Shown: piece by piece, positions 14,745 through 63,324 of the stretch
Layout: every line of letters starts with the position of its first letter
Position numbering within the stretch: the stretch's first letter is position 1
Virus record (IMG/VR): IMGVR_UViG_3300008114_001632
DNA from: a virus
Lineage: Duplodnaviria; Heunggongvirae; Uroviricota; Caudoviricetes
Length of the DNA: 64,000 nt
Direction: 5' to 3' (one strand)
Notes under the pieces: model-generated
The model's database searches: none
What the model saw: the letters and a program-made list of their open reading frames with translations, nothing else
Told to the model about the DNA's origin: nothing
Position numbers and translations under genes: made by a program

Positions 14745-14821
14745 GCGACTCGTAGTAGAGTGGTCACTACACTTGGGACTGTAACCCAAGAAGCGGAGGT
14801 TCGAATCCCCCGGTCGCTCCA
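14745..14821 (+). tRNA. non-canonical tRNA-like gene (anticodon region xUGUx; possible Thr or pseudo-tRNA)
   Basis: GGTTCGAATCC T-loop and CCA; D-stem GTAG/CTAC. The acceptor and T stems conflict by 1 nt and position 33 is C, so this is a tentative call. Confidence 0.4.
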
Positions 14822-14845
14822 TAATATAAAATCATACACAGTTAA

Positions 14846-14921
14846 TGGTGCCGCCTCCCCGGATCGAACAGGGTTCCTCGGATTTTCAATCCGTTGCTAT
14901 GACCACATCAGCTAAAGCGGC
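14846..14921 (-). tRNA. tRNA-Phe(GAA)
   Basis: Hand-folded cloverleaf; anticodon loop TTGAAAA; CCA encoded. Confidence 0.75.
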
Positions 14922-15057
14922 AAAAATAAAATGTAGTAGGTTGAGACAAAACTCAATTAGTTTGCGTCACGATCTTTAACGACAGCGAGCTTATCTCTAT
15001 GAGACCTCTACTATCCGCAACACCTTTTACACAGCACCTAGCTGGTTACTACAAATT

Positions 15058-15131
15058 TGGGGTGAAGTCGGGAATCGAACCCTGGTCTACTGTTTCACAG
15101 ACAGTCGTGTTACCACTACACTAACAACACC
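15058..15131 (-). tRNA. tRNA-His(GUG) with G-1:C73
   Basis: Anticodon loop CTGTGAA; an extra 5' G pairs with C73; two U:U mismatches in the acceptor stem. Confidence 0.65.
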
Positions 15132-15137
15132 ATTGAT

Positions 15138-15212
15138 TGGCACCCCTGGATGGAATCGAACCACCGTCCCCACGTTCGTAGCATGGTATCCTATCCATTG
15201 AACGACAGGGGT
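15138..15212 (-). tRNA. tRNA-Arg(ACG)
   Basis: Anticodon loop CTACGAA. Confidence 0.7.
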
Positions 15213-15219
15213 ATATATT

Positions 15220-15294
15220 TGGCCGGCCCTGAGAGGATCGAACTCCCACCGTCGGTTTCGAAGACCGAAATGATATCCATTTCACCAAGGGCCG
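15220..15294 (-). tRNA. tRNA-Arg(UCG)
   Basis: Anticodon loop CTTCGAA; C1-G72. Confidence 0.65.
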
Positions 15295-15317
15295 TATTAC
15301 CATAGAAAAACACACTC

Positions 15318-15414
15318 GGCTCCCCTTACAACCTTGTTCCTGTCAATTCAGGATGAAACTGGATGAACCCAGAGGCTCCCCTTGGTTGTTTGTATCTGTC
15401 AATTCAGATTGAAA
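15318..15414. repeat. ~40-bp direct repeat, two copies (GGCTCCCCTT...CTGTCAATTCAG...GAAA)
   Basis: Copies at 15318-15357 and 15374-15414, lying between tRNA genes. Confidence 0.6.
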
Positions 15415-15427
15415 GTGTGTTTATCTA

Positions 15428-15503
15428 TGGTAGGAGCACCGGGACTCGAACCCGGAACTGGCAGATTAAAAGTCTGCTGTGATAACCATTTCACCATACT
15501 CCC
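15428..15503 (-). tRNA. tRNA-Lys(UUU)
   Basis: Anticodon loop CTTTTAA; perfect T stem. Confidence 0.75.
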
Positions 15504-15507
15504 GTAT

Positions 15508-15583
15508 TGGTCCACCCGGTGAGATTCGAACTCACACCTCATTGATTAAGAGTCAAGTGCGCTACCGTTAACGCTACAAGTGG
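15508..15583 (-). tRNA. tRNA-Lys(CUU) (tentative)
   Basis: Anticodon loop CTCTTAA; paralogous to the tRNA-Asn at 22008. Confidence 0.55.
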
Positions 15584-15757
15584 TTGGTCGTAATTAAATT
15601 GATTTAATGTGCCAACCAGGACCAATACGGGGTCAAGGTTGACACTAACGTTTACTTGAACGTTTCATGTCATTCTCCTATTTTAAATTTTTGTCAATAA
15701 AGTAAATTAAAGCTACTATCATAAGTAAAACTACGATCGCCCCATTTTGTTTTCTCC

Positions 15758-15949
15758 TTAATAAGATGCGTAATCACTAAACTTAGGAAACTCAAGACGA
15801 TCACGCTCAACTACCTTTATTTCATATTCATCTATATTGTCATCATAGAATTTAATCTTAAATGTGTCTTCGTCTATTTTTTCTAATATTTCGCAGTCGA
15901 CAAAATACGATCCGTACATACTAGTATCAAGATATCTAATCGTTGGCAT
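15758..15949 (-). CDS. hypothetical small protein
   Basis: AAGGAG RBS. Confidence 0.4.
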   Translation of the reverse strand: MPTIRYLDTSMYGSYFVDCEILEKIDEDTFKIKFYDDNIDEYEIKVVERDRLEFPKFSDYASY

Positions 15950-15967
15950 ATATTTCTCCTTTAAAGT

Positions 15968-16043
15968 TGGTAGTGATGGTCGGACTCGAACCGACGATAA
16001 ACTCCGTATGAAGGAGGTACATTAGCCGCTATGCTACATCACT
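15968..16043 (-). tRNA. tRNA-Met/Ile2(CAU)
   Basis: Anticodon loop TTCATAC. Confidence 0.7.
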
Positions 16044-16044
16044 A

Positions 16045-16118
16045 TGGCAGGGGTACTAGGGTTCGAACCTAGACTAACAGAGTCAAAGTCTGTGGTGCTA
16101 CCATTACACTATACCCCA
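16045..16118 (-). tRNA. tRNA-Gln(UUG)
   Basis: Anticodon loop CTTTGAC; U1:U72. Confidence 0.65.
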
Positions 16119-16240
16119 ATAAATTTGGCACTTCGTTAGCCACACCGCTTTGGACACGGATCTAGACCCCTGCTTCCACAGGACTTATAGGCTTCAATAC
16201 TACATTCCGCTACGAAGCCCGAGCGGATTGTTGCAGTAAC

Positions 16241-16318
16241 TGGAGCACAGGGTGAGATTCGAACTCACGGTTTTGCGGATTTGCAATCCACTGCATTGGG
16301 CCTCTCTGCCACCTGTGC
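16241..16318 (-). tRNA. tRNA-Cys(GCA)
   Basis: Anticodon loop TTGCAAA. Confidence 0.65.
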
Positions 16319-16325
16319 GTATTAC

Positions 16326-16400
16326 TGGCCTCGCCTACAGGAATCGAACCCATATTCGTAGGGTAGAAGCCTACTGTATTATCCATTATACTAAAGCGAG
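16326..16400 (-). tRNA. tRNA-Arg(UCU)
   Basis: Anticodon loop CTTCTAC. Confidence 0.7.
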
Positions 16401-16407
16401 TTATACT

Positions 16408-16481
16408 TGGCGTACCTCCAGGGACTCGAACCCCGACGAACAGTTTTGGAGACTGTGATGCTGCCATTACATTAGAGATAC
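16408..16481 (-). tRNA. tRNA-Trp(CCA)
   Basis: Anticodon loop CTCCAAA. Confidence 0.75.
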
Positions 16482-16488
16482 ATTAATT

Positions 16489-16563
16489 TGGTAGCCACGG
16501 ACAGTTTCGAAATGTCGACCTATCGCTTATCAAGCGAGTGCTCTTCCTCTGAGCTACGCGGCT
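16489..16563 (-). tRNA. tRNA-Ile(GAU)
   Basis: Anticodon loop TTGATAA; unusual T arm. Confidence 0.6.
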
Positions 16564-16568
16564 ATGTT

Positions 16569-16654
16569 TGGTGGAGATGACTGGAGTCGAACCAGTAGTG
16601 CCCGAAGGGCGGCGGATTTACAGTCCACTGGGGTTACCAATTTTCCTACATCTC
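16569..16654 (-). tRNA. tRNA-Tyr(GUA), long variable arm
   Basis: Anticodon loop CTGTAAA. Confidence 0.75.
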
Positions 16655-16714
16655 CAAACTTAGTGACACTCTCCGCTATGCTTTTAGACGCCGTCGCAGG
16701 GCGAATGAAGAGTG

Positions 16715-16794
16715 TGTAGTTAAGAACACTAATAACGCCTTTTACAAAGTTCTGGGCTATGAGTCCAGTCGTCCCTATAGTGTTCTTAACTACT
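16715..16794. repeat. 16-bp perfect inverted repeat (GTAGTTAAGAACACTA / TAGTGTTCTTAACTAC) with 46-nt loop
   Basis: Reverse-complementary arms at 16715-16731 and 16778-16794. Confidence 0.6.
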
Positions 16795-16899
16795 CTAGGA
16801 TTTTAACATCTGTGTTGTCGCCACAGACTTCATCCCCTAGGCCGCCCATTTGCTAGTTTAAAGTGATAGCAGGATCTCGTTTCCTATAGCACTAAAAGA

Positions 16900-16946
16900 A
16901 AAACCCCCGGAGTATTTTACATTCCGAGGGTCTTTTTGTTTTTTGA
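16900..16946. terminator. bidirectional rho-independent terminator
   Basis: CCCCCGGAG...TCCGAGGG hairpin flanked by an A-run and a T-run. Confidence 0.55.
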
Positions 16947-17095
16947 GCTGTTACTGGTTATGCGTAACTTGCTCCTACAGAAAGGCCCTCGCCTGGTAGT
17001 CGATACCAGCGAATGCAAAACATCTGATGTTTTCTAATTTGCTTAAACATTTTGATCATCTTTCTTTCTGTTAGTTAATTTCTTACTATGTGTAT

Positions 17096-17124
17096 AGTAT
17101 ACTGTATTTATTTATCTCTGTCAA
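17096..17124 (-). promoter_or_regulatory. sigma70-like promoter TTGACA-17-TATACT (minus)
   Basis: Hexamers with 17-nt spacer, upstream of the tRNA array. Confidence 0.55.
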
Positions 17125-17194
17125 GAGATTTTCTTTAAAAAGTGACAAAAATATTGTTGTATTTTTGCCACACTCTTGAATACGGAAACATTTC

Positions 17195-17269
17195 TGGTAC
17201 CTGGTCACGGTTTCGAACCGCGGACCTTCGCCGTGTAAAGGCGTTGCTCTACCCCTGAGCTAACCAGGC
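17195..17269 (-). tRNA. tRNA-Val(UAC)
   Basis: Anticodon loop TTTACAC. Confidence 0.7.
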
Positions 17270-17276
17270 AAATTCT

Positions 17277-17951
17277 TTAGTCCTTACGACCACCAAATAG
17301 TTGTAGTAACATTAAGAACAAGTTGATAAAGTCTAAGTACAAGCTAAGAGCGCCTGCAATTTCTGCCTTACCATCATTGTCGTAACTAACCATCTCACGA
17401 ATCTTTTGTGTGTCGTATGCTGTTAAGCCTAAGAACACAATAATTCCGATAGCACTAATGACCATTTGAAAAACTGTACTACCAATAAAAATATTGATTA
17501 TACTTGCAATAACAATCGCAATCAACCCAATGAACATAAATTGGCCAACTCCGTCCAAATTACGTTTAGTGAAGTAGCCATAGCCACTCATTGTAGCAAA
17601 TAGAACGGCAGCTCCCATGAATGCGCTTACAATGCTTCCCATGTTATATACTACAAAGATTGTAGCAAAACTTAGACCCATTAATGCGGCAAATCCATGT
17701 AAAAATAGCTGTAACGCACTCTTACTCATTTTGTCCATTGCAAAGCTAACGCCAAGAATGGCTACAAGCGGCGCAAAGATTACAAGCCATTTCATTGCGC
17801 CTGTAAAGAAAAATTCCATCAGCGTTGTATTTGATCCTACAAGATAACTTACAATCATTGATGTGATAACTGCCAGTGCCATATGTCCGTAAACACGGCC
17901 CATTGCACTATTAATCTGCGATGCAGAACGAAAAACACCTGTTGCATACAT
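17277..17951 (-). CDS. Bax-inhibitor-1 / YccA (TMBIM) family membrane protein
   Basis: 7-TM profile with BI-1 family conserved C-terminal region. Confidence 0.7.
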   Translation of the reverse strand: MYATGVFRSASQINSAMGRVYGHMALAVITSMIVSYLVGSNTTLMEFFFTGAMKWLVIFAPLVAILGVSFAMDKMSKSALQLFLHGFAALMGLSFATIFVVYNMGSIVSAFMGAAVLFATMSGYGYFTKRNLDGVGQFMFIGLIAIVIASIINIFIGSTVFQMVISAIGIIVFLGLTAYDTQKIREMVSYDNDGKAEIAGALSLYLDFINLFLMLLQLFGGRKD

Positions 17952-18597
17952 AAGTTTGTCTCCTTTGTAAGATTACTTATAAAAAAACGAAAGTTAGCAA
18001 GTAAGTAATGAACTGTGCAAGGTGCAAACGGGCTGAGGTTACTCTAGGCCCTAAGCAAATTACAATATGCAAAGCACAGTGGCTTGCGTATTTCCGAACA
18101 GCAAATCACAAGTTCGATAGATTCGGGGCATACAAACACGATCAGTTTTCAAGACTGATTGCCAGTATTGGAGTCATCGCATGAAGCGATAACGGTGTTC
18201 ATCCTCATCTCTCGCCTTCTTCCGGGTAGTTTACTGTTACCAGCATACTACCAAAACCTTATAGGTGCTCTCTGTTGGAATCGAACCAAACTGTTTAACT
18301 CCGTATCTTCCTTGCACGTTCAGCAGTTAGTCGACTTAGTACCTACTGGTGTTCTCAAGTGTAGTTAAACTTCAAAGAGCATTTATAAAGTGTCTAGCTA
18401 CTCACACCACATGAGCCCTAGACTGAGCGGTTACTCTGTCCATAACATTTATTCTTTTGGAAAGGTGCTAAACCTCACCTAATGCGTCCCCGGATTCCCT
18501 ACACGGGATCGGAAGGCCAATGCACTACACGCCTAGCACTCTTTATGGTGACTGCCCCACCCCCTGTGTATAACGGGCAAGGGAGCCCGGGTTTTCC

Positions 18598-19170
18598 TTA
18601 GATCAATTCTTCGTGCTTAAGAATGTCCACAGCCTTACCACTTAGGGCAATAGTTGTACGAACATTAAGCTCTAAGAGCTCGTCCTGCAATTTCTGCTTG
18701 GCCTTTTTGGCTTCTGCTACTTTTGCACGGAATGTATCTACATCTTTGCGAGTCAATACAGAAGTACTAACTTCATCACTGTGGCCGTACAAACTTGCAC
18801 GAGTGTCTTCTTTGCGGTTCCGAATTTTATTCAACTTGCCCTCAATGACTTGAGCAGACTCACGAACGTCATGAGCTGTTAGACCTGAAAAGAATTGGAT
18901 ATCTTTCTCAAGCTGAGCCAAGTCTGCCAACTTTTCATTGACACCTGCTTGTGCATTTGCACGGCTCACTGCCTTGCGAATTTCGTACAGCACATCTGTC
19001 AGTGCTACACGACGAAACACATTGCTGTTAAATTCCTGAGCAGCCTTAGATATTTCAGCTTCAGCCTCTTGGAACTCGTTGATGCGAATTGTTTGTGTCA
19101 ACGTGATACTTTTAACAGTATCGTTGATGCTGTTCTGAAGTGCGCTTGCTTTACGAAGTGTAAGTTCCAT
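18598..19170 (-). CDS. coiled-coil hypothetical protein
   Basis: 190-aa helical ORF; promoter-like element at 19199-19225. Confidence 0.4.
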   Translation of the reverse strand: MELTLRKASALQNSINDTVKSITLTQTIRINEFQEAEAEISKAAQEFNSNVFRRVALTDVLYEIRKAVSRANAQAGVNEKLADLAQLEKDIQFFSGLTAHDVRESAQVIEGKLNKIRNRKEDTRASLYGHSDEVSTSVLTRKDVDTFRAKVAEAKKAKQKLQDELLELNVRTTIALSGKAVDILKHEELI

Positions 19171-19240
19171 GTTTGTGTCCTTTTCTCTATGTGTTAATTG
19201 TATATGATTTGTGTCTACTTGTCAAGTATTTTTTAATGTC

Positions 19241-19330
19241 TGGCGGAAGCGGTGAGATTCGAACTCACGGACCCTTTCGAGTCTTTAGTTTTCAAGACTA
19301 ACGCAATAAGCCGGGCTCTGCCACGCTTCC
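19241..19330 (-). tRNA. tRNA-Ser(UGA), long variable arm
   Basis: Anticodon loop CTTGAAA. Confidence 0.7.
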
Positions 19331-19344
19331 TTTGAAAATAAAAC

Positions 19345-19423
19345 TGGTTGCGGAGGCAGGATTCGCACCTGCGATCTCTAGCTTATGAGACTAGCGAGGA
19401 CGACTGGACTCCTCTACTCCGCT
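19345..19423 (-). tRNA. tRNA(CAU) - Met or lysidine-Ile; atypical (A1:A72, T-loop TGCGAAT)
   Basis: Anticodon loop CTCATAA. Confidence 0.55.
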
Positions 19424-19619
19424 TCAAAATATTATACAGCTGACAACTCATTAGTACTTCCATCGTTATAAGCACCATTCACCCGAATTAACAAGCTCGA
19501 GCGGGACTCGGTACGTCACTTGGGATACTAGTCCAGTTAGCAACCAATCTGCGCCGATCTTCCGATCAGCCGGGAGTTGAACCCGTCCCCTTCTACTATA
19601 TCAGTCCTTCGAAGAAACC

Positions 19620-19648
19620 TTTATAGCGTGACATTCTCTTGCTGACAA
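19620..19648 (-). promoter_or_regulatory. sigma70-like promoter TTGTCA-17-TATAAA overlapping palindrome TGACAACGAATTGTCA
   Basis: Hexamers 17 nt apart; perfect 6-bp inverted repeat at 19643-19658. Confidence 0.4.
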
Positions 19649-19799
19649 CGAATTGTCATGTGCATAACATTTCTGCTATTCTGAAACACACTACGACATT
19701 GTTATACAACCAGCTCTAATTGCTGTTTGTGGTAATGTGTTTTAGAATAGTGTTAAGACTGAGATTACATCTTAACCATAAGCACCTCTAGCATTACCG

Positions 19800-20510
19800 T
19801 ACACCTTGCGAGTATACGTTCTCTAGACATCCACTAAGTCCATATCACTATGTAACCTAGTCTGCTTACAGTATCGCCGTTTTAAGTCAGGCAGTAGACT
19901 TGACGCCATATGCTATTCTACACCATCTATTCCGTTAACCTTGCGAGCTATTCGAGTGCGCTAACACCCTACGAAACTTCCAGTATAAACTAATGTTACC
20001 TTGCGAGCTTCATTAGACTTGATTGTGTTACCACTCAAGTATTAGATACTTTTCACATACGACCGAGGCAGTCTTTGCATTTTTGTTTAAATGATCGGAT
20101 TTGAACCGACAGCATTCTTCTTAACAGGAAGATGATCTACCATTGATCTACATTAACCTACCGCGATGAGCTGCCTCAGTTGCTTCATACTCTTTTGGAA
20201 TACAAAATACAACTCACCACATACCTTTTGCCTCGCGAGCTACTCAGTGATGTTTCACGATCGGTGTACTGTATTACTACAGCCCACTAACCATTTACAT
20301 TGTATACGAGCTCTTAGGTGCGACCCCTCGAACAAGTACACTACCCTTTCTCATACCAACTAACTGATTGGTTTTATATGGAAGTCAGCACCACCTGTTA
20401 CTTTTCACTGCCCCGTGTTCCTTGCGGCACGTCGAACAATGTTCTTTCCCATACATCAGCTTTGCTGTTACATCCACCGGTCTTATGAGTGAACGCTACC
20501 TCGCGGTAGT
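19800..20510. repeat. array of >=6 degenerate copies of motif (T)TACCTTGCGAG(C) in an ORF-free region
   Basis: Copies at 19801, 19935, 19995, 20229, 20416 and 20494, with diverged flanks. Confidence 0.55.
20086..20160 (-). pseudogene. degenerate tRNA-Asn(GUU)-like pseudogene
   Basis: D, anticodon (CTGTTAA) and T arms fold; acceptor stem 5/7; no CCA. Confidence 0.4.
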
Positions 20511-20650
20511 GAGCAGGCTTGTTTACGTGAACCATTGCTGGCGCTAGTATGTAGGCATTCTAGCTTTGGGTGTGTCGCCACACTTATTCTTTGTAAACGG
20601 CAAGCCGCCTACAGGATGATAAACCACCCTTAAATTCTTAACATGTGTCT

Positions 20651-20679
20651 ATTTTAGCAAATTTTTACTGTCTTGTCAA
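20651..20679 (-). promoter_or_regulatory. sigma70-like promoter TTGACA-17-TAAAAT reading into the ORF-free repeat region
   Basis: Hexamers with 17-nt spacer. Confidence 0.45.
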
Positions 20680-20708
20680 CATCTTTTTAAAAATATTTCT
20701 AAAACATT

Positions 20709-20782
20709 TGGAGCGGGTAGCGAGAATCGAACTCGCGAATAAACCTTGGCAAGGTTTCAGGTTACCATTACATCATACCCGC
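20709..20782 (-). tRNA. tRNA-Gly(GCC)
   Basis: Close to E. coli tRNA-Gly(GCC); anticodon loop TTGCCAA. Confidence 0.8.
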
Positions 20783-20787
20783 ATATT

Positions 20788-20862
20788 TGGTGGACCGTCG
20801 GGGGATCGAACCCCGACCTAAGCCTTGCAAAGGCCCCGTGCTCCCATTATCACTAACAGCCC
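20788..20862 (-). tRNA. tRNA-Ala(UGC)
   Basis: G3:U70 identity pair; anticodon loop TTTGCAA. Confidence 0.8.
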
Positions 20863-20868
20863 AAAAAA

Positions 20869-20946
20869 TGGTCGGAGTACAAGGATTCGAACCTTGGACC
20901 CCCTGGTCCCAAACCAGGTGCGCTAGCCAGACTGCGCCACACTCCG
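20869..20946 (-). tRNA. tRNA-Pro(UGG)
   Basis: C1-G72; loop TTTGGGA. Confidence 0.7.
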
Positions 20947-20947
20947 A

Positions 20948-21172
20948 TTATACTTTTCTTAGATACTCTCTACCAATTTTGCCTTCTTGAATTTCAAGCA
21001 GTGCAGAAACTGGCGCATTAACTTGGGTAGACATTTCGTCGTTCCTGTGTTTCCTTGCTATTTCTCTAGCTCTAACTGAAGCAATTAATACTAGATCAAA
21101 TCTACCACCAACATTTTCAACACATTTATTAGTATCAATAGTTGGACCACGACTTAAAGTTTTTGCTTTCAT
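20948..21172 (-). CDS. rpoZ: RNA polymerase omega subunit (RpoZ)-like protein
   Basis: GGRFDLVLIASVRAREI and LLEIQEG match E. coli omega GNRFDLVLVAARRARQ and ALREIEEG. Embedded in the tRNA operon. Confidence 0.6.
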   Translation of the reverse strand: MKAKTLSRGPTIDTNKCVENVGGRFDLVLIASVRAREIARKHRNDEMSTQVNAPVSALLEIQEGKIGREYLRKV

Positions 21173-21188
21173 ATCTACCTTTTAAAAT

Positions 21189-21262
21189 TGGAGCGGGATA
21201 TCAGAATCGAACTGATGACCGAAGATTGGAAATCTGCTGTTTTACCATTAAACTAATCCCGC
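21189..21262 (-). tRNA. tRNA-Gly(UCC)
   Basis: Anticodon loop TTTCCAA. Confidence 0.7.
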
Positions 21263-21273
21263 TTACTAACATT

Positions 21274-21356
21274 GGTGCCCCAGGTCGGACTCGAACCGAC
21301 ACGCCTTGCGGCACTGGCTTCTAAGACCAGCGTGGCTACCATTACACCACCGGGGC
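21274..21356 (-). tRNA. tRNA-Leu(UAG), long variable arm
   Basis: Anticodon loop CTTAGAA. Confidence 0.7.
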
Positions 21357-21370
21357 AAAAACTAACACTT

Positions 21371-21444
21371 TGGTGCCCCTACACAGAATCGAACTGCAAA
21401 CTACGGATTACAAAACCGTCGTTATACCATTTAACTATAAGGGC
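21371..21444 (-). tRNA. tRNA-Thr(UGU)
   Basis: Anticodon loop TTTGTAA. Confidence 0.7.
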
Positions 21445-21497
21445 AAAAACTTTCTATATTTTAATTGTACACTCTTTACAATCAAAGTCAACTAATA

Positions 21498-21574
21498 TGG
21501 CGCACCGTAGGGGACTCGAACCCCTGGCCTCTTGCGTGACAGGCAAGCGATCTAACCAACTGAGCTAACGGTGC
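21498..21574 (-). tRNA. tRNA-Asp(GUC)
   Basis: Anticodon loop CTGTCAC. Confidence 0.8.
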
Positions 21575-21829
21575 AAAATCTTTAATAAATTGTTTGAGGA
21601 AGTTCTTGACACGCATCACCAACTTGCGTCAAGACCTCATTACAGGCCTAGTAGTTCCGCCGCCTTCCTGGAGTTTGGAATAGTTCTTGCCCTTTGACTC
21701 GATGGTGTCTCGTCATACTCTAGAACCCTCCTGCTTCATGGGTATCAAGGCCGAGCATTTCTGCTACGCAATCACCTTTTCGTTCACCCCTAGCGGACTA
21801 GGTAACCTTAAACAACTTACTAAAAAACT

Positions 21830-21904
21830 TGGTACACGATACGAGAATCGAACTCGTCTTTCCGCCTTGAAAGGGCAGCGTCCTAACCGATAGACGAATC
21901 GTGC
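21830..21904 (-). tRNA. tRNA-Glu(UUC)
   Basis: Anticodon loop CTTTCAA. Confidence 0.7.
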
Positions 21905-21912
21905 ATTTAATT

Positions 21913-22002
21913 TGGCGGAGCGTCAGGGAGTCGAACCCTGTGACCCTTTTTACGTGATCTACGGTTTAGCAAACCGCTGCCTTACCATCCGGCCCACGCT
22001 CC
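21913..22002 (-). tRNA. tRNA-Ser(GCU), long variable arm
   Basis: Anticodon loop TTGCTAA. Confidence 0.7.
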
Positions 22003-22007
22003 TAAAT

Positions 22008-22083
22008 TGGCTCCTCAGCGTGGGATCGAACCACGGACACCTTGATTAACAGTCAAGTGCAACTACCGCTGTGCTACTGAGGA
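22008..22083 (-). tRNA. tRNA-Asn(GUU)
   Basis: Anticodon loop CTGTTAA; perfect acceptor stem. Confidence 0.8.
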
Positions 22084-26073: not shown

Positions 26074-26282
26074 TGCCTAGCTGTAGCATTACGCATTTCT
26101 TTTAGTGTCCGGTTGAGCTTTCTAGCATCAGCAGTAATCCTACGTATGCTTTTACGATCTCTGTCGCTTTTGGCCTTATCTAGTTCTTCTTTAAGGTGTA
26201 GCTTCATTTTAGCTAGCCTACCTTCAAAGATTTCAATGAAACCTGTTATACCAGGACTCTTGTCTGCTGGCGTGCCGCTCAT
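26046..26282 (-). CDS. hypothetical protein (C-terminal CPHCG zinc-ribbon-like)
   Basis: ORF. Confidence 0.3.
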   Translation of the reverse strand: MSGTPADKSPGITGFIEIFEGRLAKMKLHLKEELDKAKSDRDRKSIRRITADARKLNRTLKEMRNATARHCPHCGEKI

Positions 26283-42140: not shown

Positions 42141-44186
42141 TTATTTACTTGTCGCTATAAAAACGCCGTTCCAATCTTTAGGTAGAGTTTGAGTCTGCTG
42201 GAACTCACAACGCTCTATCCACATGTCGTAATACTTGTCCATTTTGCCGTCAAACTGACCTTTTAGTTGTTTACACATGCTAATAGCCGTACTAAACTTT
42301 TGTCCTCTGTATGCACCGTGCATTGATTCGTGTATTTTTTTAGCAACATGATACGTATCAGTGATATCATCTAATACTGTATAGATAGCAATTCCTACAC
42401 TCTTACCTTTTACAGCAAGATCATCAATCTTAAGGAAGAAGAAGTCATCTCCACAGCGATCAACTGTTGCGCCGCCAACTAGCAACAAGCATCCATACTC
42501 TTTACATTTACTTTCAATACGGGCAGCAGTACTAACAGCATCACCTAGTACATCGTAGCTGTGTCTTGCAGTTGATCCCATCTCTCCAATATATCCCAAC
42601 CCTGTATTAATACCAGCACCCATGCCAACGGCAGGTCTTCCTTGAGGTATAATGATTTCTTCATTAAATTTCTCCACTGCTTTAAGCATCTTCAATCCTG
42701 TGCGTACTGCTGTAGCAGGATGGTTCAAATCTTCAATAGGTGCATTATGTATATGCATACTAGCATCACCAATGTACTTAATAATCATACCGTCTGCATC
42801 TAGTACAGGTTGTGTAATGGCATCCATGTAGCCGTTCATTATTTTTGTAAGACCTGCAACGTCATCTCCAAAACTTTCACCTAAGGGTGTAAAGCCGCGT
42901 AAGTCTGAGAACAGTATACTGACTTCTTTCTTAACACCCTTCTTAATTAAGTCTGGATTTTCTTGTAACAGTCTAACTACTGTAGGGCTAGCATAGCCTG
43001 CAAATTGTTTCTTGATTGCTTGTTTCTGTAAGAACTCGCTTATAAACTTAATGCCATAAGCATGAAGCATAACCAGAACAAGCCCGACCACAATACCAGT
43101 TGAATCGAAGAGCCAACTAAACTGTGCATAAGCATAGGAGCCAGCGAATACACTAGTCCCAATAATAACAACACCTGAAATAATACCAACATAAGTCCAC
43201 CTTGTTAAGAATAATAATAGTATACCTGCTAATACTAGTGTTAAGATTTCTACACCGTTGGCATAATCTGGTCTCTGTATAACTATACCGTTAATCATTG
43301 TAGCAATAACACTAGCCTGCACAGCATGTGGGAATACAGCACCCATACTGGTTGGTACAGGATTACTGATACCAGCTGCGGTTGGACCAACAATAACAAT
43401 AGCACCATCTAGGTTTTTAGGCAACTCAAGTAAACTAACATTTTTACTTTGTTGACTCCAATCAATCCATACCCGACCTAAGTTATCTGTAGTAACAGGA
43501 CCAAACTTAGGTATACGCATTTTTTCAACACCGCCTTCAAAAAGTTTGATTTGAAAGGTTGAATCGCCAGCTGCTACTCGCAGTGTTTCCATAGCTATGC
43601 TAGGATAAAGTTTATCGCCAACTGCAACGATAAGAGGTAATCGACGATTCACTCCGTCAACTTCAGGCATAGTTGATACAATACCAATTCCTGCTGCTGA
43701 ATTTTCTAACTGCGGTACGTTAGCAATAAGGCCCGGGTATTGTACAATTTGATCTAACCACTCTGGCCCTAGTACAGCACTGCCTGGGTTGCGTGGTATA
43801 TTTTTAGTTTTATCAGCAGGCACTGATCCTAGTACTACAGGATATTGTTTAAGAGCTGAGGCAAGAGTTGAGTCGCCACCAGTGCGATCAGGCTCAGCCA
43901 TAAGCACATTGAGAACGACAAGGCCAGCACCACGATCATACAAATCTTTAATAATTTTAGCATATTCTGCCCTGGGTAATGGCCATTGGCCGTATTTGTC
44001 TAAAGCAGCTTCGTCTATGTTAACTGTATAGATGTTATTTTCTGTAGGTGCTTTAGAAGTAATTAATGTATCAAAGTAGCGTAGTCTTACACTTTCAACG
44101 AATGTAGGATCTGCTATTCGTATGCCTACTACTAACGCTAGAGTTAATAGAGCAGTCCATGGACTTAAAAGTATTTTTTTAATCAT
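42141..44186 (-). CDS. CHASE2 sensor-domain adenylate/guanylate cyclase (class III)
   Basis: N-terminal periplasmic domain plus TM helices. C-terminal cyclase block (FSDLRGFT...GDA, YDV.GD.V..A.R.E). Confidence 0.7.
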   Translation of the reverse strand: MIKKILLSPWTALLTLALVVGIRIADPTFVESVRLRYFDTLITSKAPTENNIYTVNIDEAALDKYGQWPLPRAEYAKIIKDLYDRGAGLVVLNVLMAEPDRTGGDSTLASALKQYPVVLGSVPADKTKNIPRNPGSAVLGPEWLDQIVQYPGLIANVPQLENSAAGIGIVSTMPEVDGVNRRLPLIVAVGDKLYPSIAMETLRVAAGDSTFQIKLFEGGVEKMRIPKFGPVTTDNLGRVWIDWSQQSKNVSLLELPKNLDGAIVIVGPTAAGISNPVPTSMGAVFPHAVQASVIATMINGIVIQRPDYANGVEILTLVLAGILLLFLTRWTYVGIISGVVIIGTSVFAGSYAYAQFSWLFDSTGIVVGLVLVMLHAYGIKFISEFLQKQAIKKQFAGYASPTVVRLLQENPDLIKKGVKKEVSILFSDLRGFTPLGESFGDDVAGLTKIMNGYMDAITQPVLDADGMIIKYIGDASMHIHNAPIEDLNHPATAVRTGLKMLKAVEKFNEEIIIPQGRPAVGMGAGINTGLGYIGEMGSTARHSYDVLGDAVSTAARIESKCKEYGCLLLVGGATVDRCGDDFFFLKIDDLAVKGKSVGIAIYTVLDDITDTYHVAKKIHESMHGAYRGQKFSTAISMCKQLKGQFDGKMDKYYDMWIERCEFQQTQTLPKDWNGVFIATSK

Positions 44187-59155: not shown

Positions 59156-61093
59156 TCAAACAATTTGGGTTATGTTAGCCTGTCCAAATCGGAGGCGGCG
59201 TCTCCAAAATACTCTCTCAACAAATTGAGCATCGCTCATAGTAGATTCGTTAAAGTCAAACTTTAGCGTAGTAGGTACTTTGTGTAACTCACTGGAGTGA
59301 TCGTTTAAATATTGCCAAACATTGTGTTGGTATTGTTGAGTTCGTGGATAAGAATTGCGTTCTTTGAGTGGCACGGTAAGATGTCGTTGTAGATCCATAA
59401 GGTCCTGATGCAACTCTTGCCCAAGTTCAAATTCTTTTACAAATTCATCTAACAAGTCATACCATTTGGCAACAACCTCAGGTTGAAGTGTTAGTATCAT
59501 GCGAGTATGAAATATAATACTGTTGCCATAAAGTTTGATTCCAGGTATTCCGCTGTCAAGTGTGCAACGCCCGTGTTTGAACCAATCACATAGTACATCA
59601 ATCTGTTGTTGTTTCAGTATACGATACCATTCATGCTGTTGTGCCTGTTTAAATAATTTGGTATACATTTCCTCATAGGAAACATTTTTGTAACGATTTA
59701 AGAATCTAGTAACTAAGTTGCTGTAACCGCCCACGTGCCAAGTAAACAAATTCCAGTTGAATATACTAGCTTCAATGATGTCATCAAAAGACATATGGGC
59801 AGTACTAATTACAACATCTATGCTCTCAGCTGTAACCCCAGTATTTTCATGAGCCGACGGACTAAAATAATCATAAATTTTTGTAGTCTTGATGTCGTAG
59901 ACTTCTTTTTGGACTCGATTTAATTCTGCATTTTCTAGTACTTGGCAGTAGTAGATATCGATATCGTTGTGCATACCTAGGTCTAACAGTTTCCAAAGAT
60001 TGTTTTGCCAAGACTCAAGTGTTTCTCGCGGCAACCCCATGATCAATTCGGTACCAATGGGTACACCTTTTGCTCGTCCAATTTCTAGTATTTCAGCAAT
60101 GTTGTTGCTTTTAAGATTTTTGCGTTTGATAGCATCAAGAGTATTATCGTCAAAAGTTTGTAAGCTAATCTTAAGACCTGTTGTAGGTCGTAGAGTTTTT
60201 TTGACCAGCAGTTCTACAATGTCAATTACTTCTTGATTTTGATTTTTAGCAAACGATTGAGAGATACCAGTTGGAGCACCATACTGACGCTGTAGTTCAA
60301 TAAATCGCTCTACAATTGATCGATCTCGCTCAGGAAAAATACCAAAATTAGCATCAGCAACGTGTACAAAATCTATGCGGTTACGACTCATCCATTCAAG
60401 TTCAGCATATACACGCTCTATAGTAAACTTTTTAATTTTGCTTAGTGTTAAACTACCCCAGTCACAAAATGTACACTGATACGGACAACCACGATTGGTT
60501 TCCAGTGTAGCTGACCAGTTAACCTTGGGATTATCTATTAACAGTTGATCAAAGGTGCCTGTTAGATAAGGACTGGATAAAATTGATAAATCATCAACTC
60601 GTGCTGCCTGACCAGTATCTAGTACGCTACCATTTTGATTTATTAGCACACCTGGCACATGATCAAAGTTCTCAATGTTACGCAGGATTTCAGTAAAAGT
60701 AATTTCACCTTCGTTTTTAATAATAGCATCAATCCAAGGATACTTAGAAAATATTGCAGGGTCTGACACAGCCGGCTCTGGTCCTCCAAAAATAATTAAA
60801 CAATTAGGATTGCGTAATTTAAGAGCCTCAGCTAAGTGTAAATTATATTGTAGATTCCAAACGTAGGTACTAAAGCCAACTACTGAATCGTTTTTTAATT
60901 GTTCAACTACTTGCTCTATTGGGTCACGTCGCCAGATTAATTGATTTAATTCAAACTGCGAATCAATGTCTGGTTGAGATTGAGCGTGTGCCCAAAGACA
61001 TCCAACTGTGTATGGTAAATGAAACGAATTGAGTTCTTCTGGACCTACTTGGAAATTTACTTGTACAAAACTAACTTTATGTTTTTCATTCAT
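59156..61093 (-). CDS. B12-binding-domain radical SAM protein
   Basis: CPYQCTFCDW CxxxCxxC motif with an N-terminal B12-binding-like region. Confidence 0.7.
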   Translation of the reverse strand: MNEKHKVSFVQVNFQVGPEELNSFHLPYTVGCLWAHAQSQPDIDSQFELNQLIWRRDPIEQVVEQLKNDSVVGFSTYVWNLQYNLHLAEALKLRNPNCLIIFGGPEPAVSDPAIFSKYPWIDAIIKNEGEITFTEILRNIENFDHVPGVLINQNGSVLDTGQAARVDDLSILSSPYLTGTFDQLLIDNPKVNWSATLETNRGCPYQCTFCDWGSLTLSKIKKFTIERVYAELEWMSRNRIDFVHVADANFGIFPERDRSIVERFIELQRQYGAPTGISQSFAKNQNQEVIDIVELLVKKTLRPTTGLKISLQTFDDNTLDAIKRKNLKSNNIAEILEIGRAKGVPIGTELIMGLPRETLESWQNNLWKLLDLGMHNDIDIYYCQVLENAELNRVQKEVYDIKTTKIYDYFSPSAHENTGVTAESIDVVISTAHMSFDDIIEASIFNWNLFTWHVGGYSNLVTRFLNRYKNVSYEEMYTKLFKQAQQHEWYRILKQQQIDVLCDWFKHGRCTLDSGIPGIKLYGNSIIFHTRMILTLQPEVVAKWYDLLDEFVKEFELGQELHQDLMDLQRHLTVPLKERNSYPRTQQYQHNVWQYLNDHSSELHKVPTTLKFDFNESTMSDAQFVERVFWRRRLRFGQANITQIV

Positions 61094-61615: not shown

Positions 61616-62065
61616 TTAGAACTTGTAACGAACACCGGCAGTAACACGATTACCGTCGAATGTATTAACACGGTCTTGACCATATTGACGTGCAAGATCG
61701 AGACCAACACTAACTTGTTTAGTAACTGGCAAACTTGCGCCAATACCAACAGTCATTGCATAACCGTCAGACCCAGTCTGGTTGTCCAAATATGCGACAC
61801 CAACTTTAGGAGTTACAGTTACAACACCTAGGTTAGCAACATCGTAGCCAGTAACAATGCTGTAACGATTTTGATCGTTAGTACCAGAAGTGAAACGATC
61901 AAACCCGGCTGTGACACCAACCTTGCCAAAAGATTGACCAACAGTCAAACCATAACCATCACGGTCAGTACCTGCATAATCACGAGTACCTGTTACACCT
62001 ACTTCTAAAGCAGATACCGACATTGCGGTTACTGCTAAGATTGTTGCTATTGCAATTTTCTTCAT
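61616..62065 (-). CDS. outer-membrane beta-barrel protein (OmpA-like/OmpW-like small porin)
   Basis: Signal peptide; alternating beta-strands; C-terminal ...VRYKF. Start set at MKKIAIA (AAAGGAA RBS). Confidence 0.6.
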   Translation of the reverse strand: MKKIAIATILAVTAMSVSALEVGVTGTRDYAGTDRDGYGLTVGQSFGKVGVTAGFDRFTSGTNDQNRYSIVTGYDVANLGVVTVTPKVGVAYLDNQTGSDGYAMTVGIGASLPVTKQVSVGLDLARQYGQDRVNTFDGNRVTAGVRYKF

Positions 62066-62270
62066 TTTTAATTCCTTTAAATGTATGACTAATCTAGTCA
62101 TGTGCAATTATATAGTATCTTTACTTAGAAGTCAAGCACAAAAAAGGCATAAATATATTTGAGACTTCTTAAAGCAATTCTTTCGCTGTTAAGCCTTATA
62201 TGCCAATATTATATTGGGAGTAAGTTGATCTAAGTAGTTTCCAAATAAAATCATTTATAAGGAAACTATT

Positions 62271-62735
62271 ATGAGAAAAACTATTCTCGCAGGCGCCATC
62301 GGTGTCTTATTACTAACTGGCTGTGCATCTGACAACTATCAACAATACGCCCGAACTCAAGAAAACATTGCTCTTGCAAGGGCAGAAGCAGAAATTGCTC
62401 GATACAAAGCATTAGAAGCTATTGCCAATTCAGGTGATACTACAGCTCGAGTAGCCGCGGTAATTGCACTACAACAAGGTTCTCCACAAAACAACAGTCC
62501 TAGAGTTGAACAACCCACTAGCACCGGTGACACGGCTTTACGTTGGGCTAGTGTAATTGTGCCCAGCCTTACTCAAATTTACGGTATTGGAAAAAGCACT
62601 GATCTTGCCATAGTCAACAGTAACAATAATAAAGACATTTCTATTAACACTAACCAAACTATGTTAGGGTTTGGTAAACTTATTGTTGATCCAATTGTTG
62701 GCACAGGCGACGACGTCCTTCTGTACCCACAATAA
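62271..62735 (+). CDS. lipoprotein
   Basis: LLTGC lipobox; plus strand. Confidence 0.5.
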   Translation: MRKTILAGAIGVLLLTGCASDNYQQYARTQENIALARAEAEIARYKALEAIANSGDTTARVAAVIALQQGSPQNNSPRVEQPTSTGDTALRWASVIVPSLTQIYGIGKSTDLAIVNSNNNKDISINTNQTMLGFGKLIVDPIVGTGDDVLLYPQ

Positions 62736-62737
62736 AG

Positions 62738-62764
62738 AAAAGCACCCGAGGGTGCTTTCTGGTA
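62738..62764. terminator. bidirectional terminator AAAGCACCCGAGGGTGCTTTCT
   Basis: Hairpin plus T-runs on both strands. Confidence 0.65.
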
Positions 62765-63120
62765 ATTTCTGTTACGAGGTATTTCCTACCCTAAGCAGTG
62801 TTTAGGCTGCTAATGCGTATTCGCTTGAATTTGCGTTTACTTGATTTGCTTGATTTACGGTCATCGCCTACCGTGTTGCCGTCTCCATTATCTCACCCTG
62901 TCGAAACCATGTCAGGCCCATCATAAGAATACTATTTTTCAATTTTGTGATAAACACGAACATTATTATTGTACATATAAACAACCCAGCATACGCTTAC
63001 AATTATCGTTATAGTAGCAAAAATTAATCCTTTAATCATTTTAATTTCCTTATGGTGGACCTGGCGGGAGTCGAACCCGCGTCCAGAATGCCTTCACTTT
63101 GAAGGGATTACAACAATTCC
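62763..63120 (-). ncRNA. ssrA: circularly permuted (two-piece) tmRNA (ssrA)
   Basis: Acceptor piece ends GCGGG-TTCGACT-CCCGC-CAGGTCC-A-CCA at 63053-63085. Coding piece begins GGGCCTGACATGGTTTCGACAGGG at 62902, pairing with G3:U70. Tag ORF GCAAACGCAAATTCAAGCGAATACGCATTAGCAGCCTAA = ANANSSEYALAA* at 62802-62840. Terminator at 62738. Confidence 0.6.
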
Positions 63121-63324
63121 TTAAGCAGGCTGAATATTGCTAGCCTGTTGTCCTTTCATACCCATTGTGACTTCAAATCTTACGCTCTGACCTTCTTGTA
63201 GACTTTTGAAGCCACCTGAATTAATCTGAGAGAAATGAGCAAAAAGGTCTGCTCCGCCGCTATCCGGTGTAATGAATCCAAAACCTTTGGCGTCGTTAAA
63301 CCATTTTACTTTTCCTGTTACCAT
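63121..63324 (-). CDS. cspA: cold-shock protein CspA family
   Basis: [15 protein letters not shown]1 and VFAHFS RNP2 motifs; long 5' UTR. Confidence 0.85.

Follow-up and report, generated by a model that had tools for sequence, protein, structure and literature searches.

The window analysed here, a 64,000-nucleotide (nt) stretch of DNA from a virus of the class Caudoviricetes (IMG/VR record IMGVR_UViG_3300008114_001632), carries near its end, on the minus strand of positions 62738-63120, what its sequence identifies as a circularly permuted gene for a two-piece transfer-messenger RNA (tmRNA, the product of ssrA). The gene lies directly downstream of a cspA-like cold-shock gene and is read in the order acceptor piece, which ends in an encoded CCA, then a 133-nt intervening sequence (IVS), then the coding piece, which starts with its nucleotide G1 (Table 1). 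Within the IVS lies an open reading frame (ORF) for a peptide of 35 amino acids (aa), and the ends of the IVS pair with each other in a trailer-leader helix. Neither of these was part of the original prediction, which had been made from the letters of the sequence and had proposed a permuted tmRNA at this place. We consider it likely that the locus is a functional phage two-piece tmRNA of a virus-borne, betaproteobacterial-type lineage, the IVS of which doubles as a slot for a small gene.

Table 1. Features of the tmRNA locus and the adjoining cold-shock gene, in the direction of transcription (SD, Shine-Dalgarno; MFE, minimum free energy)
Feature	Position	Strand	Basis or remark
cspA-like cold-shock gene, 67 aa	63121..63324	-	PF00313 CSD, 100 bits; ORF list
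Acceptor piece	63053..63115 (modelled 5' end)	-	RF04321 and RF01850 alignments, ARAGORN, P2 covariation
P2 5' strand	63115-63084	-	Rfam alignment, covariation
T arm GCGGG-UUCGACU-CCCGC	63080-63064	-	Sequence, ARAGORN, Rfam
Acceptor 3' strand CAGGUCC	63063-63057	-	Followed by A73 discriminator and encoded CCA ending at 63053
Trailer strand (positions 75-87) with SD-like AAGGA (63051-63047)	63042..63054	-	MFE and centroid fold, covariation
IVS, 133 nt	62920..63052	-	Between encoded CCA and coding-piece G1
IVS ORF, 35 aa, MIKGLIFATITIIVSVCWVVYMYNNNVRVYHKIEK	62932..63039	-	ORF list; shuffle tests; hydropathy
Leader strand (positions -15 to -3 relative to G1) with ORF UAG (62934-62932) and UAUGAU leader	62922..62934	-	MFE and centroid fold, covariation
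Coding piece	62738..62919	-	RF01850 alignment, ARAGORN, covariation
Acceptor 5' strand GGGCCUG	62919-62913	-	Pairs with CAGGUCC; gives G3:U70
D-loop analogue GGUUUCGAC	62908-62900	-	Rfam alignment
P2 3' strand	62900-62874	-	Rfam alignment, covariation
Hairpin in PK1 position	62873-62858	-	Fits model
Tag frame: resume codon GCA (62834-62832), ANSSEYALAA, stop UAA (62804-62802)	62802..62834	-	ARAGORN, Rfam, translation
Intrinsic terminator, 9-bp stem, 4-nt loop, U tract	62759-62738	-	Only strong one in the region; matches RF01850 terminal hairpin

The tmRNA gene and its parts

ARAGORN called a permuted tmRNA (tmRNA*) at 62711-63145 on the minus strand, and two Rfam covariance models matched the locus end to end with scores far above chance, namely RF01850 (beta_tmRNA; 166.9 bits against a gathering score of 84, E value 9e-52, 62736-63172, model positions 1-331) and RF04321 (tmRNA_permuted; 144.1 bits against a gathering score of 47). 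The original prediction of a permuted two-piece tmRNA in a phage genome, which had been made to depend on detection by such models and on a P1 helix between the acceptor strands, is thus borne out in both respects, as GGGCCUG pairs with CAGGUCC. The tRNA-like domain comprises an acceptor stem of 7 bp, with G3:U70 as identity pair for alanine, a discriminator A, the 3' CCA and a T arm with a loop of the GUUCGAnUC type; all of these elements that had been pointed out before (T arm, acceptor 3' strand, CCA, GGGCCUG, G3:U70) lie where they had been placed on the minus strand, as does the D-loop analogue GGUUUCGAC, for which the alignment to the consensus of the model, UGGUUUCGACAGGG, has a high posterior probability. 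The spacer between the two pieces is likewise present, albeit with a length of 133 nt rather than the predicted 150 or so. Between the tag ORF and the terminator the coding piece also holds the 3' hairpins peculiar to RF01850. The terminator had been recognised correctly at 62738, but an end of the unit at 62763, as proposed, would truncate its hairpin; the position of the gene immediately behind cspA, the stop codon of which occupies 63123-63121, was confirmed. The IVS is expected to be absent from the mature tmRNA.

The tag frame has no start codon and is read, after UAAAC, as GCA AAU UCA AGC GAA UAC GCA UUA GCA GCC UAA, that is, as ten codons and a stop in the resume context UAAAC-GCA, with the tag ending in ...YALAA. 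Such an end is typical of degradation tags. ARAGORN assigned positions 312-344 of the tmRNA gene as the coding part, and Rfam aligned the tag to the consensus UAAAuGCc...GCcUAA. The tag had been given before as ANANSSEYALAA; the frame, however, reads Q-V-N ahead of ANSSEYALAA, with the pre-tag codons GUA AAC encoding V-N and not A-N. Since both programs put the resume codon at GCA and V-N precedes it, the tag is ANSSEYALAA. The same tag is found in a diverged relative of the window (locus L074; 70-86 % identity). Sister phage tmRNAs that are linked to a csp gene carry far longer tags of 28-32 aa (L010, L022, L063, L012, L043, L039, L104, and others), for example, ANADTFDFSAMSFTGNTVSGKSKVALAA and ANADTFDFSAMSFTGNTVRGAANESRFALAA, in each of which a conserved internal block precedes the customary ...ALAA end, whereas the window has the short form of 10 aa.

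The helix that defines a tmRNA of the beta type is P2, in which the 5' region of the acceptor piece pairs with the region of the coding piece just after the D-loop analogue, and not a pairing between the 3' end of the coding piece and the 5' end of the acceptor piece, which the original prediction had suggested looking for. Covariation was assessed with 81 unique acceptor-plus-coding sequences that were aligned after removal of the IVS. The proximal 7 bp of P2 were canonical in 100 % of them with up to six pair types per position, and the distal 5 bp in 80-100 %, including an exchange of UA for CG (40 versus 35 sequences). Overall, 85 % of the P2 positions paired, as compared to 36-48 % in slid registers, with an ambiguous middle section. 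The stem of the hairpin in the PK1 position also shows a compensatory switch between subclades (CGGU/ACCG versus CAUC/GAUG). Folding and co-folding offered the 5' end of the acceptor piece with the 3' region of the coding piece as an alternative, which was not adopted because P2 is supported by covariation.

The intervening sequence, its helix and its reading frames

Directly after the CCA, the sequence at positions 75 to 87 pairs with that at positions -3 to -15 ahead of G1, yielding a helix that prolongs the acceptor stem by about 13 bp. Over 82 distinct arm pairs, 92.9 % of these pairs were canonical, as compared to 42-52 % when the register was slid and 67 % when partners were shuffled (maximum of 71.5 % in 500 shuffles), and double compensatory changes on both sides were seen at 11 of the 13 positions. 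The mismatch A(-2)xC74 is invariant in all 89 unique loci. The same helix is also found, with 90 % pairing and the UAUGAU leader retained, in the tmRNA of the myophage Melnitz (Methylophilales/OM43), which is of the alpha type, and in another 81 viral loci of the alpha-like group; relatives that lack an ORF in the IVS have the helix as well. Because the arms covary across the ORF, both halves of the tmRNA are, on this comparative evidence, placed on one precursor RNA, and the IVS is read as a closed domain stacked on the acceptor stem. The notion of two independent genes with their own expression signals and an ordinary small phage gene in between, and hence no single precursor, could draw on the wide range of IVS lengths (4 to 273 nt in the relatives) and on cargo that is unrelated between loci; yet a covarying helix that spans the ORF in both lineages is sensible only within one RNA, and no promoter-like or terminator-like site was found inside the IVS of the window, which makes such an arrangement very improbable.

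The ORF in the IVS of the window starts with an ATG 13 nt after the CCA and 7 nt after the SD-like AAGGA and terminates with the UAG in the leader strand, so that the two strands of the trailer-leader helix contribute the SD motif and the stop codon, respectively. Its product has a transmembrane-like best 17-aa hydropathy window of 2.48 and is predicted to be a single-pass membrane peptide. When the interior was dinucleotide-shuffled with the helix arms kept fixed, an ORF of at least 35 aa arose with P = 0.016, and one that also started at the place typical of its class with P = 0.006 (0.64 % of trials). Compared with the ORF-less relative L074, the window has about 70 nt more in its IVS, an excess for which the ORF accounts. 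In two degenerate DNA-pattern scans of IMG/VR for diverged homologues of the peptide, only L032 was recovered, with 100 % identity; comparison with 134 IVS peptides (blastp-short) gave no significant match, and neither Pfam nor PHROGs returned one. On balance, we lean towards this ORF being translated.

The case for a protein-coding IVS is stronger for the class as a whole, which was surveyed in 91 unique beta-like IVSs. None of those shorter than 80 nt contains an ORF of at least 20 aa, roughly one in three of those with 82-93 nt codes for a hydrophobic peptide of 22-26 aa, and 20 of the 23 with at least 120 nt are filled to at least 80 % by a single sense-strand ORF (shuffle p <=0.025). The ORFs start 9-14 nt after the CCA, most of them stop 1 nt before G1, and the conserved leader ...UCUUUAUGAU yields a recurrent C-terminal ...VSL. 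Two of the products are recognisable, with a thioredoxin in L059 (PF00085, 75 bits, CGPC motif) and a phrog_13558 match (1e-12) in L096. An SD motif in the trailer arm co-occurs with an ORF, with SD-to-start spacings clustering at 4-8 nt and with odds ratios of 7.5 (p 3e-5) in beta-like and 10.5 (p 2e-6) in alpha-like loci, as judged by Fisher tests in which the phylogenetic relatedness of the loci overstates their independence. Families of IVS peptides recur across distinct contigs and keep frame and length despite heavy nucleotide divergence; second codon positions vary least, with a codon-position bias that is only moderate. Taken as a class, the ORFs are very likely real genes, to judge from these patterns of sequence.

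Nearly identical helix arms (UAAGGAAGUUU ... AAGUUUCUUUAUGAU) surround wholly unrelated ORFs, including the thioredoxin, in L001, L046, L078, L101, L092, L005, L011, L114, and L059, and it looks as if IVS cargo is swapped at a fixed site in the manner of a cassette. Movement of one and the same cassette between lineages was considered for L241, an alpha-like phage tmRNA matching the IVS arms of the window (TAAGGAAATTAA...), and was dismissed, as its cargo is unrelated. In L241, a tRNA-like sequence (GGTTCCTTAGCTCAGCTGGATAGAGC...) follows directly on the coding piece in a head-to-tail packing. Melnitz itself (L169, MZ577097.1) has an unannotated IVS ORF at 26077-26220, preceded by GGAG and containing ...FKWLSKTRLVVITRDYFRERNRKADAKIPKYLSG..., which runs about 45 nt into the coding piece of the tmRNA and has clear homologues in the IVSs of L199, L242, and L280.

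For the window itself, a functional tmRNA could also be combined with an IVS ORF that is a chance frame in an A+T-rich spacer, with AAGGA and stop codon belonging to the structural helix. The peptide indeed lacks a homologue outside the same phage, the shuffle probabilities are modest, U-rich sequence readily gives hydrophobic "peptides", an alternative frame of 38 aa overlaps, and the helix is present in ORF-less relatives as well. What makes us regard a chance frame as rather unlikely is the start at the class-typical distance from the CCA with an SD motif 7 nt upstream, the presence of SD motifs in ORF-bearing arms and their absence from most ORF-less ones, the ORF-filled state of the great majority of long IVSs, one of them with a thioredoxin, and the fact that the ORF explains the additional length relative to L074.

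Source phage, lineage and distribution

A 681-aa protein of the window (42141-44186, minus strand) shares 53 % aa identity with a protein of Melnitz and 35 % with one of the Pelagibacter phage HTVC008M. It also matches phrog_35576 end to end, and its counterparts in both phages are annotated with an adenylate/guanylate cyclase domain. The window further encodes a DNA ligase, a cell-wall hydrolase and a porin-like protein as well as 28 tRNA genes and one GOLLD RNA (ARAGORN, Rfam). By virtue of the likeness to Melnitz and HTVC008M and of this gene content, the source genome is assigned to a large T4-like aquatic phage of a Gram-negative host and a relative of Melnitz. The same phage is represented by the IMG/VR contig L032, with 100 % identity over the final 2.2 kb of the window. 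The GOLLD RNA (RF02032; 201 bits, full length, 19756-20220, minus strand) lies inside the tRNA array (14745-22083) and has a tRNA-Asn gene embedded in it (20085-20157); together with the 28 tRNAs and the tmRNA, it makes up a substantial set of translation-related RNAs.

Of 100 related loci, 30 have a csp homologue on the same strand and no more than 400 nt ahead of the acceptor piece, which reveals a csp-linked subclade of tmRNAs to which the window belongs. Since the csp stop codon lies about 5 nt ahead of the modelled start of the acceptor piece, csp and tmRNA precursor are probably co-transcribed; the sole promoter-like site of the region (63372-63344) is situated upstream of csp. At 63172-63121, where the 5' leader of RF01850 was aligned over the 3' end of csp, a promoter of the tmRNA itself was considered and rejected, as this alignment is weak and unstructured and comes without a promoter-like site. 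Other neighbours are a convergent ORF with a lipoprotein-type signal MRKTILAGAIGVLLLTGC... (62271-62735, plus strand), a porin-like outer-membrane beta-barrel protein with the C-terminus ...RYKF (61616-62107, minus strand; PF13609 slightly under threshold) and a 645-aa B12-binding radical S-adenosylmethionine protein (59156-61093, minus strand).

While alphaproteobacteria and marine cyanobacteria, which the original prediction had listed, are homes of permuted ssrA genes, the best fit here is a third lineage, that of the betaproteobacteria (RF01850). The gene nevertheless sits in a virus and not in a betaproteobacterial chromosome. At least 119 IMG/VR contigs contain a 25-mer that runs across the T arm and the acceptor 3' strand, and ARAGORN called a permuted tmRNA in almost all of them; among 185,579 bacterial species genomes, only 49 contain this 25-mer. 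Among these 49 bacterial loci, 36 gave an ARAGORN tmRNA, in every case one-piece (Lachnospiraceae, Saprospiraceae, and others), and 13 gave no call; combining the 25-mer scan with ARAGORN, no permuted copy with the acceptor arm of the window was found in any of the bacterial species genomes. Acceptor pairs 4 and 5 are, moreover, swapped in a compensatory manner relative to the RF01850 consensus (GGGCCUG/CAGGUCC versus GGGggUG/CAccUCC). Within the collections scanned, the window tmRNA is by these sequence criteria a member of a virus-borne, beta-like sublineage.

These data bear on the possibility, raised earlier as an integration-site relic, that the locus is functionless in the phage, being either a fragment of a host ssrA gene from imprecise excision or a duplicate of an attachment (att) site. 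Integration often takes place at tmRNA genes, and phages may carry pieces of ssrA (PMC9004378, PMC4383910); moreover, two related loci look partial, one with only an acceptor piece (L013) and one with a degenerate coding piece (L027). The gene of the window is complete, however, with both pieces, tag and terminator intact and end-to-end model matches; it belongs to a family present in more than 100 viral contigs, with compensatory conservation over more than 80 unique viral sequences and with no permuted bacterial counterpart as described above, and its phage is related to a lytic T4-like myovirus. A relic is therefore extremely improbable. The two partial loci, L013 without a recognisable coding piece within 1.5 kb and L027 with a degenerate acceptor 5' strand, could be copies in decay or else variants consisting of the tRNA-like domain only.

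In isolate phages of INPHARED, the acceptor piece of the window has matches of 47-71 nt with an identity of 80-90 % (H12-H22), for example, in the Pseudomonas phages UF_RH6, PA_L9, PaMx31, and SM1, the Xanthomonas phages XacN1 and JGB6, Acinetobacter phage BUCT628, and Alcaligenes phage QDWS595. Mostly unannotated or covered by a "hypothetical protein", these matches may be overlooked tmRNA pieces or tRNA-like elements. In L036, L081, and L082, ARAGORN additionally produced spurious one-piece "tmRNA" calls over the upstream csp gene beside the true permuted call, which calls for caution in the automated annotation of this region.

Proposed maturation, precedents and implications

In the scheme that goes with a functional two-piece tmRNA, transcription would begin at a promoter ahead of csp and produce one RNA that spans csp and the tmRNA precursor and ends with the terminator at 62738. 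Covariation shows P1 to be extended in the precursor by the trailer-leader helix, which closes off the 133-nt IVS. The accepted model for the maturation of permuted tmRNAs invokes RNase P and 3' trimming (PMC3985003). Host RNase P would accordingly cut before G1 at the 62920/62919 junction and the host's tRNA 3'-end enzymes would trim back to the CCA at 63053, giving two pieces, the acceptor one of about 65 nt and the coding one of about 180 nt, that would be held together by P1 and the covarying P2; the encoded CCA, the RNase P-type junction and the covarying helix are consistent with such a cleavage of a precursor. Host alanyl-tRNA synthetase would then charge the molecule by way of G3:U70, and host SmpB and EF-Tu would deliver it to stalled ribosomes, where translation would resume at GCA and add (A)ANSSEYALAA to the stalled chains, directing them to proteolysis and keeping ribosomes free during infection.

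A search for SmpB-like ORFs found none in the 64 kb of the window and none in 2 Mb of sequence around 240 viral tmRNA loci, while the same query detected SmpB at 8 of the 49 bacterial tmRNA loci as a positive control. Because the window encodes no SmpB of its own, we infer that the phage depends on that of the host. The same finding can be turned into an argument for competition, in that the phage tmRNA might interfere with host trans-translation or retarget it, by titrating SmpB or by tagging host proteins in a phage-specific way for recycling. Such a role would be in keeping with the reported inhibition of host tmRNA by a phage tmRNA that consists of the tRNA-like domain only (PMC4131195, PMC11915505), with the selective tagging of host proteins proposed by the authors of the Melnitz paper (PMC9004378), and with the unusually long tags of sister phages. 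We nevertheless hold it to be improbable, as G3:U70, UAAAC-GCA, the 10-codon ...YALAA tag and the in-frame stop have all been kept, as full trans-translation demands, and a decoy needs no conserved tag frame.

The scheme has a second product. The excised or opened IVS could serve as a mini-mRNA for the 35-aa membrane peptide, the translation of which would be coupled to the maturation of the tmRNA. In the precursor, the SD motif would be buried in a long helix that stacks on the G+C-rich acceptor stem, and only a weak terminal helix would be left after processing. The IVS folds at -14 kcal/mol by itself versus -33 kcal/mol with the acceptor stem attached, and since the same pairing is weaker once processed, translation of the ORF would be favoured after maturation. 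We tentatively extend this, with less than even confidence, to the proposal that the IVS of permuted phage tmRNAs is a dedicated and exchangeable expression slot, from which tRNA-processing enzymes release a mini-mRNA and in which translation of the cargo is licensed by maturation. The cargo would then be a 35-aa membrane peptide here and thioredoxin or other small proteins elsewhere. In the commonest class, where the ORF stops only 1 nt short of the RNase P site, translation of the freed mRNA would terminate right at its 3' edge, and the cargo protein could thereby even become a built-in substrate of the tmRNA from the same transcript. In mitochondrial tRNA punctuation and tRNA-mRNA co-transcripts, mRNA ends are likewise set by tRNA-processing enzymes, and in type I toxin mRNAs such as hok, pairing between 5' and 3' parts masks the SD motif of a small hydrophobic peptide until processing. 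The resemblance to both is a mechanistic analogy and does not extend to homology, and neither toxicity nor an antisense RNA is in evidence here.

Several points weigh against the reading of the locus as a functional tmRNA with a gene slot. Besides the relatedness of loci and the modest codon-position bias mentioned above, the only other copy of the 35-aa peptide stems from the same phage (L032) and hence provides no direct evidence of purifying selection, and no diverged homologue turned up in the scans made. The ORF stops 12 nt before G1, as compared to 1 nt in the commonest class, and is overlapped in another frame by the 38-aa ORF, which starts with TTG. As regards the RNA, P1 and the T arm were fixed by the search pattern and are hence uninformative on covariation; thermodynamic folds of the precursor recovered the T arm and P1 but not the P2 of Rfam, with a z-score of only -1.7; and of PK1 only the hairpin was seen, the second, pseudoknotting helix lying outside the Rfam model. 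Finally, all enzymatic steps of the scheme are inferred.

The closest bacterial counterpart is the betaproteobacterial two-piece tmRNA modelled in RF01850 (Sharkady & Williams 2004, as cited in PMC3985003 and PMC9004378). It shares with the window the permuted order, T arm, D-loop analogue, P2 layout, and position of the resume codon as well as the UAAA-GCx context, the ...ALAA tag end and the 3' hairpins with terminator. The window copy differs in being viral, in its swapped acceptor pairs 4 and 5, and in an ORF-holding IVS with 116 nt where the model has 12. For Caulobacter crescentus (Keiler, Shapiro & Williams 2000, as cited in PMC3985003), the two-piece tmRNA is an experimentally validated precedent for a permuted precursor that is cut into two RNAs, which pair as a tRNA-like domain and are active in trans-translation. 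That gene is, however, chromosomal, of the alphaproteobacterial lineage, and has a short IVS. We know of no protein-coding cargo in it.

Phage-borne two-piece tmRNAs as such have already been published, with those of Melnitz and of related pelagimyophage contigs among the nearest to the present one (PMC9004378). The Melnitz paper lists 53 ARAGORN two-piece calls among isolate phages, mostly marine, and describes the phage's own copy as alpha-type with a glutamine riboswitch (PMC9004378). The permuted ssrA gene of Melnitz resembles that of the window in its trailer-leader helix, UAUGAU leader, AxC74 mismatch and long IVS with an SD-preceded ORF, but fits the alpha model RF01849 best (106.7 bits), has another T arm and acceptor stem, encodes the tag ANDNYVPVDYALAA, lies downstream of a gene other than csp, and is followed by the riboswitch, of which the window has none. 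The IVS ORF is annotated neither in that paper nor in the GenBank record, and the paper contains no description of the helix (PMC9004378). A tmRNA database from 2025, the origin of model RF04321, comprises 79 phage tmRNAs and reports a tRNA-Ala gene in one IVS ("a unique feature") and a repetitive element in another, but is silent on protein-coding ORFs in the IVS (PMC11915505). These cases likewise show that an IVS tolerates inserted functional sequence; each was seen once, whereas the phage cargo described here is protein-coding, occurs at dozens of viral loci and is built into a helix. What is new is thus the ORF-bearing IVS framed by a trailer-leader helix, no description of which was found in full-text literature searches of incomplete coverage, so that an earlier mention is possible.

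The tmRNA itself adds a beta-like lineage, very common among contigs of uncultivated aquatic viruses, to the published phage two-piece tmRNAs, and the occurrence of the trailer-leader helix in two independent-looking lineages of phage tmRNAs provides a concrete and testable model for the maturation of permuted tmRNAs. Protein genes wired into this helix, which annotation pipelines miss, would be a compact means for phages to hide and co-regulate small genes within a "non-coding" gene. Dozens of such loci represent natural constructs in which processing by RNase P and 3'-end enzymes is set against translation initiation and termination at RNA ends, a question that is at the core of trans-translation.

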